From a virus (Duplodnaviria > Caudoviricetes), in the IMG/VR virus record IMGVR_UViG_3300012662_000008, positions 102,529 through 166,528 of that record: 64,000 nt of DNA; one strand, written 5' to 3'. The notes below the pieces were generated by a model. That model saw only the letters and a program-made list of their open reading frames with translations. It was not told the origin of the DNA and ran no database searches. Made by a program: the position numbers and the translations under genes. How positions within the stretch are numbered: the stretch's first letter is position 1; every line of letters starts with the position of its first letter. Shown here in pieces: positions 5,335-52,576 of this stretch.

Positions 5335-6888
5335 TTAACCAATTGTGAAATTAACTCTATTCGAACCTTCGGTACCCTTGTACTCCCAAGCGTAATAAGT
5401 TGCAGTCGTATCTCCTGTAGCTTTTGTTATTGCAGTTGTATTCTTTACAAACTTAGAAAGTACATCGATATCATACTTTGCAGTAAGTCCGTTAAGTGCT
5501 TTTGCTGATTTAATTGATTTGCTTGAGTGTAACAGAATTCTGTAACCAGTTCCACCAGCCACTTGTGCAGCGAACGCTACTCCAAAAGTTGTGTTATTTG
5601 CGACAAGAGGAAGCTTCGTAGTGTCGGCAGTAGCAGTAACTGTCGGGGTCGATGTGTCTGAAGTGCCTGAAGAGGCTCCATTTGTATATATCGGATAATA
5701 CGCTTTAACTGTAGCACTCTTTGTGCTGGTAAGTGCTTTATTTGAGAAATGTGTAGTCTCTACCGCTTTGCTTGTTCCCTCTACTTTTTCCTTCGTGTTA
5801 GTTGCTGCATAAACTGTCTTTGCTGTAAACGCAGTAGGAACAGCAGTAACTCCGGCATTGCTAACAGAAAGAACATTATCACCTTCTGCAGCAGCATATG
5901 CTGTACCACTTGTTGCAGCTACAGCCGTAGCAGAACCAAGTTTTATTGTAGCAGTAGCAGCAGCAGTTCCAGTAGTTGTACCAGCCTTTGTTTCGGTGTA
6001 AGCTCCGGACTGAAATTTGTTGTCTACGAAAACACCGTATGTACCAGAAATAGTAACCTTTGATGAATTTCCGGAAACGGCAGTACCAGCAGCAAAAGTA
6101 GCAGTAAGGTCCTTTCCAACCTCGACTGTTGCTGAACTACCAAGGGAGGCAGTAGGTGCTGCAATAGATGGGCTCCAAGTATAACTTGCAGAAAGTGTAC
6201 CATTCTGCTTCTTTAAGAAAAGACCTTCAAGAATTTCTGCAAGAGACTTTCCTTCAGGAATAATTTTATTTCCCGCGTCATCAGTCCAAGGCCAAGTATC
6301 GCCAGTCTCTTGTACGTTATTTGCAAGTGGTCCTCCAGCAATTGTAATTGCTTTTCCAAGAGCGACATCCACATGTACCTTCTTATCTACAATTTTTGCT
6401 GCTGTATCAGTACCATCTTCAACTCCTGTAACAGGCACCGTAACAGTAGGGATATCAACACTTGCAGAAAGACCAGTAGCAGTCTTTGTGAGCACCACGT
6501 TTCCTGCATCTTCTCCAGATGCGATATCCAATGTAACCTTTGCTGCTGTCCCAGTTTTGCTAGCTGAAATCGCGTGCTTTCCGTCTGCCGCATCACCAGA
6601 AATTGTTTCGAGCTTCTTTGCAAGCTCGGCTGCCATTGCAGTTGCAGATGCAACATCAGAAAGATCTACTACAACATCTGCTGTACCATCACTAAACTTA
6701 ATTGTAAGCTTTTTGTCTACAAGTGTTGCATCAGCAACCTTTCCTCCATAAACTGTTGGTGTCGCTGTACCAGCTCCCAACATTATCTGTTTTTTGTTCT
6801 CATCGAAATAAATCGCACCGGCTTCATAAGTACTAGGGTAGGTAGGATTTTCTTTCTTTGTGATTTTAATAAATTTTACGTTTGCCAT
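5335..6888 (-). CDS. Structural (fibre/decoration-like) protein
   Basis: 517 aa Ala/Thr-rich, beta-strand-like ORF within the structural operon. Confidence 0.65.
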   Translation of the reverse strand: MANVKFIKITKKENPTYPSTYEAGAIYFDENKKQIMLGAGTATPTVYGGKVADATLVDKKLTIKFSDGTADVVVDLSDVASATAMAAELAKKLETISGDAADGKHAISASKTGTAAKVTLDIASGEDAGNVVLTKTATGLSASVDIPTVTVPVTGVEDGTDTAAKIVDKKVHVDVALGKAITIAGGPLANNVQETGDTWPWTDDAGNKIIPEGKSLAEILEGLFLKKQNGTLSASYTWSPSIAAPTASLGSSATVEVGKDLTATFAAGTAVSGNSSKVTISGTYGVFVDNKFQSGAYTETKAGTTTGTAAATATIKLGSATAVAATSGTAYAAAEGDNVLSVSNAGVTAVPTAFTAKTVYAATNTKEKVEGTSKAVETTHFSNKALTSTKSATVKAYYPIYTNGASSGTSDTSTPTVTATADTTKLPLVANNTTFGVAFAAQVAGGTGYRILLHSSKSIKSAKALNGLTAKYDIDVLSKFVKNTTAITKATGDTTATYYAWEYKGTEGSNRVNFTIG

Positions 6889-8749: not shown

Positions 8750-11174
8750 CTATACTTCTTTTATTTTGTCGTTATATGGGTTGCCGTCATATAATTGTGC
8801 AATCTCAGCTTGGGCTTGCGTTTCTTTTATTTCAGCAACTCGCATATCATAACTGTGTTTATCGGCAGCAATCTTTTTATCCAACTCAAGACGATCACGT
8901 TCAAGAGCAAGTTTTTCGTTATTTGATTTCTCAAGTTGTTTTTCCATTTGCTGCATCTGTTCCTGCATCTGTTTAATTTGCTTCTCGTACTCTTTAACAG
9001 TTTGCTCGGCTTGGGTAGCTTGCTGTTGTAATTGCTGCAATTGTCCAGTTTCTGCCTTTTGTTTTTCAAGTGCGTCTTTCACAACCATTTTCAGTTCTGT
9101 AAGATTTTTTGCTGCGCTCATATCAACAATAAGTTCTGCGTTTGCTAAGCCTGCTTTTATAAGTTCTGCACAATATGCTTTTAACGTCTCACGAGTCTGG
9201 AAAGCTTCTGTACTATCCTGGATGTGGATATCAAAATCTGTCATTGTGTAGTACTCAGGTAAAGCTGTGAAAATCTGGTTCAATCTGGTGCCGTTAATAA
9301 GCGTACCGGCAATTCCTTTTTTAAATACGATTTTTGCTAAATTAAGCAGATCATAATTAACTTCCTTGTACATCAAATCCATTGCAGAAAAATACTGCTT
9401 GGTAAGTAGTGTAGATTGCCTAATTCCAACCTTCACATTGCTCACTGCATCTCTCTGCTGGATTCCTCCTAACTTTTCAGCAAATACTCCGGTAATCGAA
9501 CTGGCTTGTTGTTCAATACTTTCAAGTACCATCTGAAAGGCTTGGATTGTTTGTGCTTTTATCGTGTCATCATAACCGTTAAAAGCAGTATTAATCATCT
9601 GTGAACCTTCCATTGAAGAGTCAATTCACGCAACGCCCTGCTTTTTATATGCAAGCCATTTCTGTACTCGCTCGGGCATTTCTTCGCCAAGAAATTCAGG
9701 TAAGTGCGCTGCATCAAGAAAATCTCCAACTGTTCCAGACGATGCTATAAGGCTATCCCTATAGTAGATTGTAAGATCATATCTCGTTTTTGTTCACGTA
9801 GCTTCGCTAAGACTACGCCGCTTTCGCTGCTGCATATTTCTATGCAGTCCAGACTATATCATAACATTTCTGTTTCCCGTGCTTCGGAACGCTTGCTCCT
9901 ACATAATAGTCGTTGAACCTTCCCAAAAGGGCTCGGCTGCTGGTTGTCTTCGTCTTTCTCGGTAAGAGTTTCCAGCAATTCTCGGGATTTACCCAGGACT
10001 AGATAAGTCAATCCTGCAAGTCCATGGTACTCAATAAGATAGAGAATGGGTCTCCATTCTTATCTGAAAAGAAAAGCCCATTTATACTAAGCGAGCAGTC
10101 ATTTGGATTTGAAATGCTCCTCGTAATGCTTTTTGATTCACCACGAACTATATATATTTCTGTACCTATTTTAACTCCTTCGTGTCGAGTAAGTCGTTCT
10201 TTTTCTTTATCATATTCGATTCACTCGCATTCATAAACTTCATATGTATTCTCTTTTGCAATCGCAGACGCTCCTCTATTTTCCCTAATTGGATGTGCTT
10301 CCATCCCTCCGAGGATTCCAGGAGTTGATGTCATTGCACTAAACGGAGCCATATCTGTTTTCACATAAACGAAGTTATCATTTCTAACTCCTTGATCTTG
10401 GTGTGTCTCTAGTTTTTCTTTTGCTTCTTTTGAGAGATCATCGCCAAACTCGTCTAGGATTCTTTCTGCAGTCATTCATCGTCTAACAACTGCACGAGGA
10501 GATTTGTTAAGGTAAAATTCGTTAAAATTTCGCTCTACAAAAGTGTCTAGTGGATTTAATATTTCCAGACTAATTGTGTCACCTTTTGGGCGTGTTCTAT
10601 AATAACACATTCCCCCAATTAACAAGTCTGTTAATAGATCCCGCATTTTGTTTTTTAAGTCAATATCACGAGAGTTTTTAATATAATTTAAAATATTTTG
10701 TGCTGCTATTTCATATTCAGAGACGTAACTTCTTTCAGCGTCTTTCTTTATTCGTTCCATTTCTTGCTCGAAAAGAGCGTCAACAACTGGTTCTTTTCCG
10801 TCTCCAAAAACTTGTAAGATAACGTTATTTAACTGTTGTTCAAAATGCTTGTAAGCAGCCTCGTGTATCTTTAATTGCTTGTCTCGCATAATATTCGAGA
10901 TTGTCTTGTCATCCTTGCAAGTAATCTGTAGATCCGGATCAAGCTCAAGATATTCACCAACCAACACATCTACGTGCTTTTTAATCAATGGAGTAAACCC
11001 AACCGATGTTGGAGTTCCAATTCCATAGTTGTCTTCGATGTGTCTAAACTGTTCTTCGTCTCTCGTGCAATGATAGTAATTGTAAGCTTTTCTCAACTGA
11101 ACTTTATCATAAACTAACTCGTTAATACACTTGTTAATTTTTTCAATTTCCTTTTCTTTATTCATTGCATTCAT
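8750..11174 (-). CDS. Portal protein (crAss-like), TGA=Trp, split by group I intron 9785..10010
   Basis: Track fragments 10476..11174 and 10221..10475 join via TGA; removing the intron fuses ...MDLQD|RYDLTIYYRD... in frame with 8750..9613; follows the terminase; coiled-coil C-terminus. Confidence 0.8.
9785..10010 (-). mobile_element. ORF-less group I intron (226 nt) in portal gene
   Basis: Minus strand has P AATTGCTGGAA, Q AACCAGCAG, R GTTCAACGACTA and S ATGATATAGTCTG; P1 CAGGAU/GUCCUG with U.G at the splice site; P10 UAUCU/AGAUA; terminal G; removal restores the frame. Confidence 0.9.
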
Positions 11175-36500: not shown

Positions 36501-36529
36501 CTAGTTTTGTATTACGGCGAAACTCTTTA

Positions 36530-36703
36530 AGGTTGTTTCAGCATTCTTATTTTTACTATTTTGCTATAAAATCATTAAAAAACAACCTGTATTTTTGGAA
36601 TAATTCAGCATTTTTTAGCTAAAATTCATGATTTCACACTTCCTTTTAACAGACTAGGGGAGGGTGTTTATTCCGTATTGCACATTCTCCCCTAGTCTTT
36701 TTT
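36530..36703 (+). promoter_or_regulatory. Attenuator-like leader: two stem-CAGCAUU motifs plus alternative terminator/antiterminator
   Basis: AGGTTGTTT-CAGCATT..AAACAACCT; GGAATAA-TTCAGCATT..TTATTCC; 17-bp terminator 36651-36698 plus T-run, ending 10 nt before ATG 36713. Confidence 0.6.
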
Positions 36704-36712
36704 CTTTTTATT

Positions 36713-38110
36713 ATGGATAACTTCATTTCAGCAATCAGCACCAAAAATGCTCACACAGCAAACGGTGCAATCACAAACAGTACAACACTCAACAAATGTC
36801 TAGATTTCTTTGCAATTGCAGGAAATCACCAAGATATGTTAGGCTCTTTTCTTTCCGCGTTTGGAGAAAATGAGCAATTAGCAATTCGGATCTTATTTTG
36901 GTCCCGTGATTGCCGAGGTGGTGCTGGTACAAAAAAGAATTTTCAGATTTGTCTTTCTTGGTTGCAAGAACATAGGCCTGAAATCTTTTCAAAAATCTTC
37001 AGATTAGTTCCGGAATATGGATATTGGAAAGATCTTTACAAACTTCAACCAACAGATGAACCTGTTCGTTATATAGCTAACACGCTTATTAACGAAGAAG
37101 ATCATTCACTTTGTGCAAAATATTGTCCTCGAAAGGGTTTGTGGTTTTTGAAACTGCGTCAATTCCTTGGATTTACTCCAACTGTTTTTAGGCATCATAT
37201 TGTGAATAGAACACAAGTTGTAGAACAATTAATGTGTGCTAGAAAATGGAGCAAGATTGAGTATAGTACCGTTCCTAGTGTGGCATCACGTATTTACTCT
37301 GGAACATTTGGGAGGCACGATCCTGCTCGTTATTCTGCTTATTTACAAGCAGTTAACAATGGCAAGCAAAAAATTAACGCATTGGTTCTCTTTCCAAGTG
37401 ATATATATGCAGATTATCGACATGGTACTTTAAAAGAAGATGCAGTTCGAGCACTTTGGAATAATATGCCAAACTTTATGGCTGGTTGCAAGGAGCGCAT
37501 TATGCCAATTTGTGATGTTTCTGGTAGTATGAAATGGGGAAACCCTGCACAGAAGGTACAACCAATCGATGTTTCAGTTGCTCTCGGAGTATATCTTGCA
37601 GAACACAATGAAGGCCCATTTCATAACTGTTTTATGACCTTCTCAGAAAAACCAGAAATAGTTACTCTTACCGGCAATGACATATTTGCAAAATTTGAAT
37701 ATATTAAAAACTATATACAGGGTTATAACACAGACTTGCAAGCAGTTTTTGATCTTATTCTTAGGCGAGTAATAGAATGTCATCTTTCTCAAGAAGATCT
37801 TCCTACTAAGTTATTGATACTTAGTGATATGGAGATTGATTGTGTTATGAATCAGGCAGATAAGACGAATTTTGAAGCAATCGAGGAGAAGTTTAAAAAT
37901 GCAGGCTATGAAAGGCCTGGGTTGATTTTTTGGAATATAGAAGGACGTGGCAATAATATGCCTGTTACTCTTGCTGATAAGAATTGCGCTCTTGTTTCTG
38001 GTTACTCGCCAGCAATTGTACAATCAGTTCTTGGTGGAGACGATCTTTCTCCTATGGCAGTTATGCTAAGAACAATAAATTCCGAGAGATATTCTCAGAT
38101 AATTCTGTAG
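36713..38110 (+). CDS. DUF2828-type TROVE/VWA-like protein (Ro60-related architecture)
   Basis: T-x-NGA, LFWSRDCRGGAG, EYGYWKDL, MIDAS CDVSGSM, NTDLQAVF, ILSDMEID, IFWN and LVSGYSP motifs. Confidence 0.85.
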   Translation: MDNFISAISTKNAHTANGAITNSTTLNKCLDFFAIAGNHQDMLGSFLSAFGENEQLAIRILFWSRDCRGGAGTKKNFQICLSWLQEHRPEIFSKIFRLVPEYGYWKDLYKLQPTDEPVRYIANTLINEEDHSLCAKYCPRKGLWFLKLRQFLGFTPTVFRHHIVNRTQVVEQLMCARKWSKIEYSTVPSVASRIYSGTFGRHDPARYSAYLQAVNNGKQKINALVLFPSDIYADYRHGTLKEDAVRALWNNMPNFMAGCKERIMPICDVSGSMKWGNPAQKVQPIDVSVALGVYLAEHNEGPFHNCFMTFSEKPEIVTLTGNDIFAKFEYIKNYIQGYNTDLQAVFDLILRRVIECHLSQEDLPTKLLILSDMEIDCVMNQADKTNFEAIEEKFKNAGYERPGLIFWNIEGRGNNMPVTLADKNCALVSGYSPAIVQSVLGGDDLSPMAVMLRTINSERYSQIIL

Positions 38111-38143: not shown

Positions 38144-38260
38144 GTCCCACATAGCTCAGTAGTAGAGCACGTTATAAAATAGCCAGTTTTGGTTATTTCC
38201 GCATTATCTTTTAGACTGATAATCTCGGGGTCGTTGGTGCAATTCCAACTGTGGGACCCA
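38144..38260 (+). tRNA. tRNA-like RNA with GAT (Ile) anticodon and a 41-nt insertion (38172-38212) in the anticodon stem
   Basis: Acceptor TCCCACA/TGTGGGA plus C-CCA; removing the insert yields a perfect CGAGA-CTGATAA-TCTCG arm. Confidence 0.75.
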
Positions 38261-41300: not shown

Positions 41301-42473
41301 AAACCGCTGTTGTAATGAATTTTAAATCAAACCGAATATGTACCCGATGCCACAAAAGACCTGCTTTTGGCACTGATGGTCTCGGGTATATCACTTGGCG
41401 TAATAGACCAATCTGTATAGAATGTCTTGAAGCGCTGAAACGAAGTGGAGAATATGAAACCAATAGAACTCGCAAATAAGTATCTTGTTGAAAATCACTC
41501 TGTTGCAGATAACGACTTTCAAAACGCAATGAACATCGCTGTTATGAAGGCTTTTCTTGCAGGATATAAGTCTGCTTCACAAAAAGCTATGTCATGGTTC
41601 GAGGGTTATCTTGCCGAAGATTGTCGAATAGATGATTGGCTGCGTGATTCGGATGTTTTACCGAACGGACAAAAGGAATTTATAAAATTTATGGAGGAAT
41701 AATTATGAGTGAAATTTATTGGATAACAGTTCTTGGAAGTTTTAGTGCGGCGTCGTTCATTATTGCAATTGTCGCGTTTTTTGCGTTCATATTGCTTTCA
41801 ATTGCTTGTTTTATCATAATTGCAGACGGCAAAGAATCATATTGTTTTAAGACAGTTAAGAAATCGGCAATTACATCCGGTATTACAGCCTTGATTTTTG
41901 GTATTTTTTGCTGCCTCATTCCATCGAAACAGGACTTGTACCTCATCTATGGTGCAGGAACAATAGTTGATTATTGTCAAGACAATCCTAAGGTAAAAGA
42001 GATTCCAGACAAGGCAATTGATGCTCTGAACACTTGGTTGGATATGGTTAACAAAAAAAGGGAAGATAATTATGTGGATAGCAAGAGATAGAAATGGAGA
42101 ATTATATGCCTATTCAGTTAAGCCTGTTAAGGATAAAATTGACGGCATATTTACCCAGGTAAGAAAAGGTTCTATCGAACTTGATTTCAATGAATTCAAG
42201 GATGTTACTTGGGAAAATTCTCCAAGAGAAATTAAATGTTGCCCAAGTACTCTTGACCAATTAAATTATCATCTAGATATCACTCCAAAAGAACAACTGG
42301 ATAAGGGGTTTGATTGGGAAAGCATACGGATAAAAGCCGCTATTCAGATAATGGCATCTCTAGTTGGATGTGATTCGGCAAGAGAATTGCGTTCTAAAAA
42401 TACAGATGAGAATTATTTTTCAAAATCTGCCGTATCTTATGCAGACGAACTTGTAGAAATGTTGAAGAAATAG
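38336..42473 (+). other. Operon of about 12 small hypothetical phage CDS (38336..38620, 38604..39239, 39418..39789, 39908..40114, 40119..40355, 40360..40758, 40755..41315, 41705..42091, 42072..42473 and others)
   Basis: Tightly packed plus-strand ORFs, intact in code 11; shared motifs WIARD (39908, 42072) and DWE.....A (40119, 42072). Confidence 0.7.
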
Positions 42474-42517
42474 TTTCTCCATTGTAATGTGTTTGGTTTT
42501 ATTGGAGAAACTTGGTT

Positions 42518-42615
42518 GATTCCGTAGCTCAACGGTAGAGCAGCATGGCCTAAGTCAGGGCAGCCCCTGATGATGAAGTCTCAGCAAGTAGTTGGTTCGA
42601 CTCCAACCGGAATTA
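42518..42615 (+). ncRNA. tRNA-like RNA with a 26-nt insertion (42545-42570) in the anticodon stem and a non-canonical loop
   Basis: GATTCCG/CGGAATT acceptor; canonical D and T arms; insert removal gives GCTGA-TGAAGTC-TCAGC. Confidence 0.7.
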
Positions 42616-43385
42616 CAAACACTTATAAATTAAATAGTTATGAAAAGTTGGAAAGTTTATTACAAGGACAAGTTCGGCGATACAAGCAAATGCTGGACTG
42701 AAGCAGAAACCCGTGAAGATGCCATTACAAAAATAAGGCATGAATATTGGGATGTTGATGAAATTATCAGCTGTTGCGAAATGAGATAATTATGAAAATA
42801 GTTTACACTGAAGGTTGTACTTGTTTTAGTCTTACAATAGACAAAAAAGACGTACAAGATCTTTCTGAAGTAGAAATTAAAAACACACTTTTAAAAGTCA
42901 TCGAGCACTTAAATAAGGATGATGTGATCCAAATCTTACAAGATGTTGCACAAAGAGTTGGAGAATACAAGTATGTTGATCATTGTGATGAGTGCAATGA
43001 TGATATATGTGAATATTCAATTAAAATAAAATAATTATGACTGTAAGAGAACTTGATAATGCACTCTGTGGTTTAGATTTTGATGCAGAGGTTATTTTAG
43101 TTACTTATGTGAATGGAGTTAAGTATGAACGAGGTATAGAAGATGTTGTAATAGACTTACGTGATGTGGAACCTGCGATTCTTATAACATCTCCAATTGT
43201 TTAATTTTTATTATAAATAAAATATGACTATCAAAGAATTAATTAATGAACTTTCTAAAATGAACCCCGAAGCAAAAGTTCTTATGCTTGTTTGTGATGG
43301 TATTGAGGATCACGAGGGTGATATTGCAAGCGTTCTGGAAGACCCTTATGATAAAGAACATGTTATCTTAGCATCTTAATAAATT

Positions 43386-52416: not shown

Positions 52417-52488
52417 ACCCTCGTAGTTTAATGCTTAGAACTGGGGACTTCAAATCCTTAAGTGCCTGTTGGATTCGGGCCGAGGGTG
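52417..52488 (+). tRNA. Opal suppressor tRNA, anticodon TCA (presumed Trp)
   Basis: ACCCTCG/CGAGGGT acceptor with G73; GGGGA-CTTCAAA-TCCTT arm (anticodon 52450-52452); short variable loop, so not tRNA-Sec. Confidence 0.88.
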
Positions 52489-52576
52489 CCTAACTAATTG
52501 ATTATAAATATTTTACATTGAAAAATTCTATTCCCACTCGGCTGTGAAGTCCAGTGGGTTTTTATGTTTTTAGCTA

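Follow-up and report, generated by a model that had tools for sequence, protein, structure and literature searches.

A conserved tRNA-shaped RNA with an extra arm in its anticodon stem, encoded near a Ro60-like protein gene of a phage

Must a phage gene that is shaped like a tRNA gene serve decoding? Phage tRNA arrays are usually read as codon-supply genes only, and the DNA analyzed here, the final 64 kb of a 166.5-kb IMG/VR virus record (the window), carries two tRNA-shaped genes that standard annotation missed or mislabelled. One of them, at 42518-42615, has an anticodon stem that is split between nucleotides (nt) 28 and 29 of the tRNA frame. This RNA (the 42518 RNA) is a real and conserved element with the shape of a tRNA, and decoding by it is very unlikely. 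Our preferred reading, to which we give about an even chance, is a non-decoding tRNA mimic that would retain its extra arm and is possibly accessory to a Ro60-like system.

A 98-nt tRNA-shaped RNA with a split anticodon stem

The Rfam tRNA model (RF00005) matched 42518-42615 end to end with 43.3 bits, against a gathering score of 29 (E = 3.8e-8 for the stretch searched and 4.3e-9 for the genome). The acceptor, D, and T arms form a cloverleaf frame that scores above the gathering threshold, the D loop contains GG and the T loop UUCGA, and the alignment leaves out 39 nt, which belong to the anticodon arm. The elements of the gene and its upstream hairpin are as follows.

42472..42512, plus strand: 10-bp hairpin AGTTTCTCCA / TGGAGAAACT (from the sequence and the strain alignment)
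42518..42615, plus strand: tRNA-shaped RNA gene, 98 nt (Rfam RF00005 and our own frame scanner)
42518-42524 paired with 42608-42614, plus strand: acceptor stem, 7 bp, including G1-U72
42527-42541, plus strand: D arm, GCTC-AACGGTA-GAGC
42543-42544, plus strand: G27 C28
42545..42570, plus strand: 26-nt insertion between nt 28 and 29, the sole deletion restoring a 5-bp stem
42555-42570, plus strand: insert hairpin TCAGGG-CAGC-CCCTGA, at the 3' end of the insert
42571..42585, plus strand: pseudo-anticodon hairpin TGA-TGAAGTC-TCA plus G42 C43 (TGA, 42571-42573; loop TGAAGTC, 42574-42580; TCA, 42581-42583; GC, 42584-42585)
42586-42590, plus strand: variable loop AAGTA
42591-42607, plus strand: T arm, GTTGG-TTCGACT-CCAAC
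42615, plus strand: A73 (read from the sequence)

The anticodon region of the 42518 RNA comprises 48 nt, compared with 21 to 22 nt in a normal tRNA. Every single deletion across this region was enumerated, and exactly one, that of 42545-42570, yielded a perfect 5-bp stem (GCUGA-UGAAGUC-UCAGC). The removed segment consists of a 10-nt single strand, ATGGCCTAAG, followed by the hairpin. In the same exhaustive search, no single deletion with at most one mismatch gave U33 together with a purine at position 37. As a decoding tRNA, the 42518 RNA fails on both stem and loop, since the stem is broken by 26 nt and the loop UGAAGUC carries G33 and U37. The anatomy given in a preliminary description of this DNA, made from the sequence and comprising canonical acceptor, D, and T arms, a 26-nt insert at 28/29 with its hairpin, and a rebuilt 5-bp stem whose loop lacks U33 and a purine at 37, was reproduced in each of these points, and its expectation that such an RNA is unlikely to decode agrees with our own.

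Other readings of the element were tried. ARAGORN missed it in default mode and in intron mode reported a tRNA-SeC(tca) with a 9-nt intron within the anticodon and a long variable arm; this call was dropped because of a U-C mismatch in the stem, a C33 loop, and no known removal mechanism. Read as a type II tRNA with nothing deleted, the element would have to have a variable region of 31 nt and has no valid anticodon arm, and a hammerhead reading of CUGAUGA finds no stem II after the motif. The 42472-42512 hairpin lies between the stop codon of the open reading frame (ORF) 42072-42473 and the 42518 RNA gene, and 8 of its base pairs are preserved in another strain of the phage.

A family of tRNA-shaped RNAs with an insertion after nt 28

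The preliminary description had also proposed that two sequence-unrelated RNAs of the window, both with insertions at 28/29, belong to a class of extra-armed tRNA mimics. The second of these is the following sibling RNA.

38144..38260, plus strand: sibling RNA, shaped like tRNA-Ile(GAT); G-1:C73 present, CCA encoded, 41-nt handle inserted
38172-38212, plus strand: handle insertion of the sibling RNA, after nt 28

The sibling scored 38.7 bits with the Rfam tRNA model over 38145-38257. Its deletion analysis had a unique perfect solution, in which 41 nt are taken out after nt 28 and a canonical Ile(GAT) arm, CGAGA-CUGAUAA-UCUCG, remains. Homologs adjoin the orthologous protein gene in L052, L064, and L049, and they keep G-1:C73 though their anticodons differ (Thr and Pro). 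The motif shared by the sibling homologs was turned into a search pattern (CAGCAAT, a gap, and a T arm), which returned 47 IMG/VR loci. About 20 distinct phage lineages carry a complete tRNA frame with an insert of 41 to 60 nt exactly after nt 28. The insert runs in the order UA-rich linker, hairpin, (N)NA-CAGCAAU, and U-rich linker; the first strand of the hairpin ends in ..YCUU and its loop starts with GU. There are variants in which the handle module stands in place of the 5' side of the anticodon loop, as well as circularly permuted relatives. In the permuted relatives, the RNA starts with A(A/G)G and ends with ..YCU-GU, so that the hairpin strands form the terminal stem, and the acceptor stem is closed by a loop.

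Both the split stem and the inserted hairpin covary. Across 21 frames, pairs 29:41, 30:40, and 31:39 each occur as three to five standard pair types with double-sided compensatory changes. In the inserted hairpin, 18 cells change on both sides, a value that none of 500 shuffles reached and that slid controls fell far below. The anticodon loops of the family keep U33 in 19 of the 21 frames and a purine at 37 in all of them, and the anticodons are those for Lys, Asn, Thr, Pro, Gln, Ile, Gly, and Met. tRNA-shaped RNAs that bear an extra arm at 28/29 do form a real class, to which the 38145 RNA belongs. The literature that we searched contained no published description of handle-bearing tRNA-shaped RNAs linked to phage DUF2828 genes.

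Two handle-bearing tRNA-shaped RNAs are present in the deposited genome of Cronobacter phage S13 (NC_028773.1, 132703-132945; L128:3395-3637), where they are labelled as a tRNA-Ser of 121 nt and a tRNA-OTHER of 113 nt. The pair lies downstream of a DUF2828 'RNA-binding protein' gene and is followed by a third, permuted copy.

The Ro60-like protein gene and its leader RNAs

The protein gene beside the sibling RNA and the RNAs in its leader are as follows.

36529..36675, plus strand: two stand-alone copies of a stem plus CAGCATT handle (sequence reading and descriptor scan)
36713..38110, plus strand: Ro60-like protein gene, 465 amino acids, with DUF2828 and DUF7788 (Pfam, 2e-31 and 2e-49)

An AlphaFold2 model of the product, built from 13 homologs, had a pLDDT of 82. 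Compared with the PDB by Foldseek, this model gave 12 matches with E <= 0.001, all of them Ro60/TROVE chains that cover most of the protein, including Thermus phage Ro60 (E = 1e-7), Xenopus and human Ro60, and Deinococcus Rsr. The predicted structure shows a protein that folds like Ro60. DUF2828 was found in 31 of the 46 records with the handle pattern and in all eight of those that are at least 90% complete; for comparison, a DUF2828 homolog was found in 704 of 50,697 cultured-phage records. In 19 DUF2828-bearing records, the handle RNA lies 190 to 780 nt upstream of the gene on the same strand. The handle family is tightly linked to DUF2828 genes, and it is plausible that the 36713-38110 protein binds the 38145 RNA.

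The two copies at 36529-36675 stand in the leader of the Ro60-like gene, with stems of 9 and 8 bp in the descriptor scan. The first copy (36529-36590, 62 nt) reads AAGG..-CAGCATT-..CCTGT and resembles Dictyostelium Class I RNAs in size and in the signature of its ends, although the Rfam model of that class (RF01414) matched nothing in the leader copies at E <= 10. A loose descriptor, a stem next to CNGCAW, was too unspecific, with 70 matches per strand versus about 31 in shuffles. Campylobacter phage F355 shows the same layout as the window: two stand-alone stem plus UAACAGCAAA / UUACAGCAAA RNAs (L129:1320-1490) lie directly upstream of a 'von Willebrand factor A-like' (DUF2828) gene. In the window, a strong hairpin (36650-36701) also stands immediately ahead of the start codon of the Ro60-like gene.

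The 42518 RNA lies in the same block as these elements. The block comprises early genes and tRNAs, the Ro60-like gene, three handle RNAs, and the 42518 RNA, and one of the three handle RNAs bears its handle at 28/29, identical to the split position of the 42518 RNA.

Relation of the 42518 RNA to the handle family

The 42518 RNA resembles the handle family in its full tRNA frame, its split position, its stem of 2 + 3 bp, and its place in the block of the Ro60-like gene. As in the family, the insert follows nt 28, and its removal gives a 5-bp stem; one family member (L111) even has the same split stem, GC|UGA..UCA|GC. In other respects, the 42518 RNA differs from the family. The inserted hairpin of family members is followed by (U)UA-C(A/U/C)GCA(A/U)U and a linker, whereas in the 42518 RNA the hairpin abuts nt 29 without a linker, and no single-stranded (U)UA-CAGCA(A/U)U follows it; CAGC is absent in the handle arrangement and present as the tetraloop. 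The GU-initiated distal loop is also missing. The 26-nt insert is the shortest seen, compared with 41 to 60 nt in the family, and the loop lacks U33 and R37, whereas the family keeps a canonical loop. Finally, the 42518 RNA is on the same strand as the DUF2828 gene but 4.4 kb downstream of its stop at 38110, whereas family members typically lie within about 1 kb of the gene, 190 to 780 nt upstream.

A covariance model of the handle (R1) was built from 14 family anticodon arms, none of them from the window, and it shows the S-stem covariation. Searched against both strands of the window, its top match was 38169-38227, in the sibling RNA, with a weak score of 15.1 bits (E = 0.36), and the 42518 RNA was not among the 19 matches at E <= 10. 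Because the class is defined by the handle and the 42518 RNA has none, its membership in the family is not established. Of the class proposed in the preliminary description, the part that stood is the 28/29 class itself, with the 38145 RNA as a member and compensatory changes across about 20 lineages; the part that did not is the place of the 42518 RNA in it, given the missing handle module and canonical loop and the missing R1 match. The third-best R1 match, at 6294-6364 on the plus strand (13.6 bits, E of about 1), reads CUCUUGUA..AAG..CCAGCAAUU; it may be due to chance, and the Ro60-like gene is far away.

Another phage contains a possible analogue of the 42518 RNA. The 104-nt RNA at L091:6991-7094 has a tRNA frame without a handle, with two inserted hairpins and the loop CATTTAA (A33); its neighbours are a handle RNA on one side and a DUF2828 gene on the other. 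A search for relatives of this RNA found none.

Two folds of the anticodon arm were compared. ViennaRNA preferred a bent rod (GC..GGC....GUCAGGG-CAGC-CCCUGAU......GUC), the minimum-free-energy fold at -29.8 kcal/mol, over a three-way junction at -24.2 kcal/mol, and nearest-neighbour folding gave the inner UGA/UCA pairs of the junction a probability of 0.003. Both folds share the hairpin (0.93 to 0.95) and the outer pairs G27-C43 and C28-G42 (0.68). As a control, 17 relatives of the sibling with covariation-supported inner stems were folded in the same way, and in 13 of them the inner pairs had probabilities of at most 0.2, so this energy model gives no ground for choosing one fold over the other.

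The rod raises the prospect, which we rate as quite improbable, that the 42518 RNA carries a cryptic handle and is a direct partner of the Ro60-like protein, with CAGCAAG at 42582-42588 serving as the CAGCAAU motif. In addition to the rod being the minimum-free-energy fold, this reading draws on CAGCAAG standing immediately after the 3' strand of the rod, where it overlaps both the 3' strand of the stem and the variable loop, and on relatives without an anticodon hairpin, which use CAGCAAG, CAGCAAC, or CAGCAAA. CAGCA[AT] occurs 125 times per strand in the genome, about once per 1.3 kb, so that the chance of one in 98 nt is about 0.07, which is weak evidence. However, the motif would be partly paired with G27 C28, it stands 2 nt from the T stem rather than about 20 nt as in relatives without an anticodon hairpin, the distal-end signature ..YCUU-GU..AAG.. 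is absent, and R1 does not list the region at E <= 10. We regard CAGCAAG at 42582-42588 as a lead only.

Conservation of the 42518 RNA

A second strain type (L063 and L126) was recovered through the flanking 133-amino-acid ORF. Its DNA is about 90 to 95% identical to that of the window, and the product of this ORF shares 79% protein identity. Several near-identical copies were recovered as well, and the phage was found in assemblies of the type of ERZ26858441, in runs of the type of SRR29834396, and in run ERR8981346. The 42518 RNA itself is identical in L063, L072-L078, L126, and L127. Between the window and the diverged strain, there were no differences across the 112 nt of 42505-42616, compared with 15 differences in the 100 nt upstream and 11 in the 100 nt downstream. 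The borders are sharp: three substitutions fall within 42501-42504, and an indel of 4 nt lies at 42617, 2 nt past the end of the RNA. On the evidence of this alignment, the element is a conserved island whose borders match those of the RNA. The same two strains also share long near-identical stretches elsewhere, and part of the conservation could therefore reflect recent recombination rather than selection.

Searches for a diverged homolog by blastn in 50,697 phage records, by three IMG/VR pattern scans, and by a metagenome scan found none. The route through the flanking ORF (protein database and encoding contigs) led only to identical copies in two strain types, and the 42518 RNA is known from one species-level phage group. 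Since all copies are identical, they provide no covariation for choosing between the folds, and the homologs with compensatory changes on which the preliminary description had staked its class did not appear for this RNA. An examination of 20 kb around the Ro60-like gene in the nearest sister lineage, L064/L065, did not find the 42518 RNA; both this gene and the handle RNA are kept in that lineage.

IMG/VR look-alikes at L008/L010, L009, and L011 were unrelated long tRNAs. A match in L062 belonged to a different RNA of about 150 nt, which has only an acceptor stem and a T arm. This RNA-like stretch (reverse strand, ending at the match at 2374-2393) lies within a tRNA cluster, and its 7-bp acceptor stem and T arm are nearly identical to those of the 42518 RNA; it has no recognisable D arm.

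The narrow distribution bears on whether the 42518 RNA is a decaying relic without function, descended from an ordinary tRNA or from a 28/29 RNA with a handle, that has lost its handle and anticodon loop. Restriction to a single species-level group, the negative result in the examined part of the sister lineage, and the loss of both family-defining features, the handle and the canonical loop, would all fit a relic. Against this, the arms are intact with a high tRNA score, and the element carries no substitution in 112 nt while its flanks differ by 11 to 15% right up to the borders. We therefore consider decay doubtful.

A retained or a removable arm

In our preferred reading of a retained-arm, non-decoding mimic, 42518-42615 would be expressed and would encode a stable tRNA mimic rather than a decoding tRNA. 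Because its acceptor, D, and T arms are canonical, the RNA should adopt the L-shape of tRNAs, and tRNA end-processing and tRNA-modifying enzymes would be expected to act on it as they do on YrlA Y RNAs. The anticodon arm would be rebuilt as a 43-nt element, either the bent rod or a three-way junction of 2 bp, the GC-rich hairpin, and the 3-bp stem with its 7-nt loop. Neither fold has U33 or a purine at 37, so the arm is most likely a binding surface and not a codon reader. The extra arm would be kept in the mature RNA, with all 98 nt presumably under purifying selection. The RNA shares its block with the Ro60-like gene and the handle RNAs, one of them with its handle at 28/29; we infer from this a lineage-specific accessory role in a Ro60/Y-RNA-like system, possibly with contact to the protein, or a role as a decoy for tRNA-binding factors.

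The insert may instead be an intron. In that case, 42545-42570 would be excised and the ends joined by a protein-dependent pathway, giving a 72-nt tRNA with the stem GCUGA/UCAGC, in parallel with what the handles of the 38145 family would need if they are removable. With the insert removed, the 42518 RNA does regain a perfect 5-bp stem, joined where the stems of the family are joined, and in 19 of the 21 family members removal restores a canonical anticodon arm with U33 and R37, which is most easily explained if these arms are sometimes used as tRNAs. A phage precedent may lie in the 'enigmatic', perfectly conserved tRNA introns reported for Lak megaphages (bioRxiv 10.1101/356790). However, the spliced product of the 42518 RNA would keep G33 and U37 and be a very poor decoder. 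A self-splicing group I intron would need far more than 26 nt, the insert matches no Rfam family, and Pfam scans of the 18 neighbouring ORFs turned up neither an RNA ligase nor a kinase or nuclease. Inspection of the 38145 insert by eye revealed no archaeal-type bulge-helix-bulge motif, in which two 3-nt bulges flank a 4-bp helix. Taken together, excision is unlikely, though somewhat less so than decay or a cryptic handle.

Short inserts in tRNA genes occur elsewhere as well. In G001, a 173-kb phage without a DUF2828 gene, a 111-nt tRNA-Asn(GTT)-like gene (L061; G001:C1:162634-162744) has a 40-nt insert in its anticodon loop, which shows that such inserts also occur outside the Ro60-like system.

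Permuted tRNA genes of the red alga Cyanidioschyzon mature through circular intermediates. A long shot along these lines is that the 28/29 inserts of the 38145 RNA, of about 20 lineages, and of the 42518 RNA are all removable elements of a protein-assisted phage tRNA maturation. The Ro60-like protein would hold the arm during cutting and rejoining, the permuted genes would mature through circular intermediates, and the 42518 RNA would be a non-decoding regulator or competitor.

Returning to the retained-arm mimic, the 42518 RNA keeps the architecture of the family without the protein handle or a usable anticodon. If it is functional, tRNA mimicry in phages would be more diverse than the Ro60-type system alone. 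Extra arms in anticodon stems could be used in tRNA surveillance, in repair, or as decoys for host defences that target tRNAs. With 98 nt, two folds, and one candidate protein, the 42518 RNA is a compact test case.

Comparison with known systems

Among known tRNA inserts, the self-splicing group I intron was rejected, since the 42518 insert has 26 nt and lies in the stem, whereas such introns have a catalytic core of at least about 200 nt and sit in the anticodon loop. The only Rfam match to a group I intron in the window was at 9830-10046, and no family matched the 26-nt insert. That match is a catalytic intron on the minus strand, with 74.6 bits. Another RNA gene of the window, at 52417-52490 on the plus strand, is a tRNA with the anticodon UCA, of the opal suppressor type, which would fit an amino-acid reading of TGA in part of the genome. 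In Lak megaphages (Devoto et al., bioRxiv 10.1101/356790), the tRNA introns resemble the 42518 insert in that the phage tRNA genes are overlong, the short inserts are identical across samples, and there is no known splicing mechanism. The likeness is drawn from the published description of these introns, and the Lak tRNAs have normal anticodons by a eukaryote-mode tRNA scan.

The handle itself has a counterpart in the Class I RNAs of Dictyostelium (RF01414; Kjellin et al. 2021, PMC7919456), which start with AAG, form a short stem, carry an 11-nt motif ending in ..ACAGCAA, and end in CUGU. The 38145-family handle and the two leader copies (36529-36675) share the AAG start, the short terminal stem, and the CUGU end, with ..UUACAGCAA beside the 5' strand. 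A stand-alone phage copy next to a permuted copy gave an RF01414 match with E = 0.16. The 42518 RNA has no module of this type.

A further comparison is with YrlA, the bacterial and phage type of Y RNA that is bound by Ro60/Rsr (RF02553; Chen et al. 2014, PMC4201824) and whose tRNA-like part has been shown experimentally to be handled by tRNA end-processing and modifying enzymes (PMC4201824). A permuted copy of the handle family scored 38 bits with the YrlA model (E = 4e-7), below the gathering score, and nothing in 42400-42750 matched it at E <= 10. YrlA is circularly permuted, has its two ends in the Ro-binding stem and a loop-closed acceptor, and carries the motif GNCGAAN0-1G, whereas the 42518 RNA has the normal tRNA topology. 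What the two have in common is a tRNA-like D arm, T arm, and acceptor that serve, or in the 42518 RNA would serve, as a non-decoding module near a Ro60-type gene.
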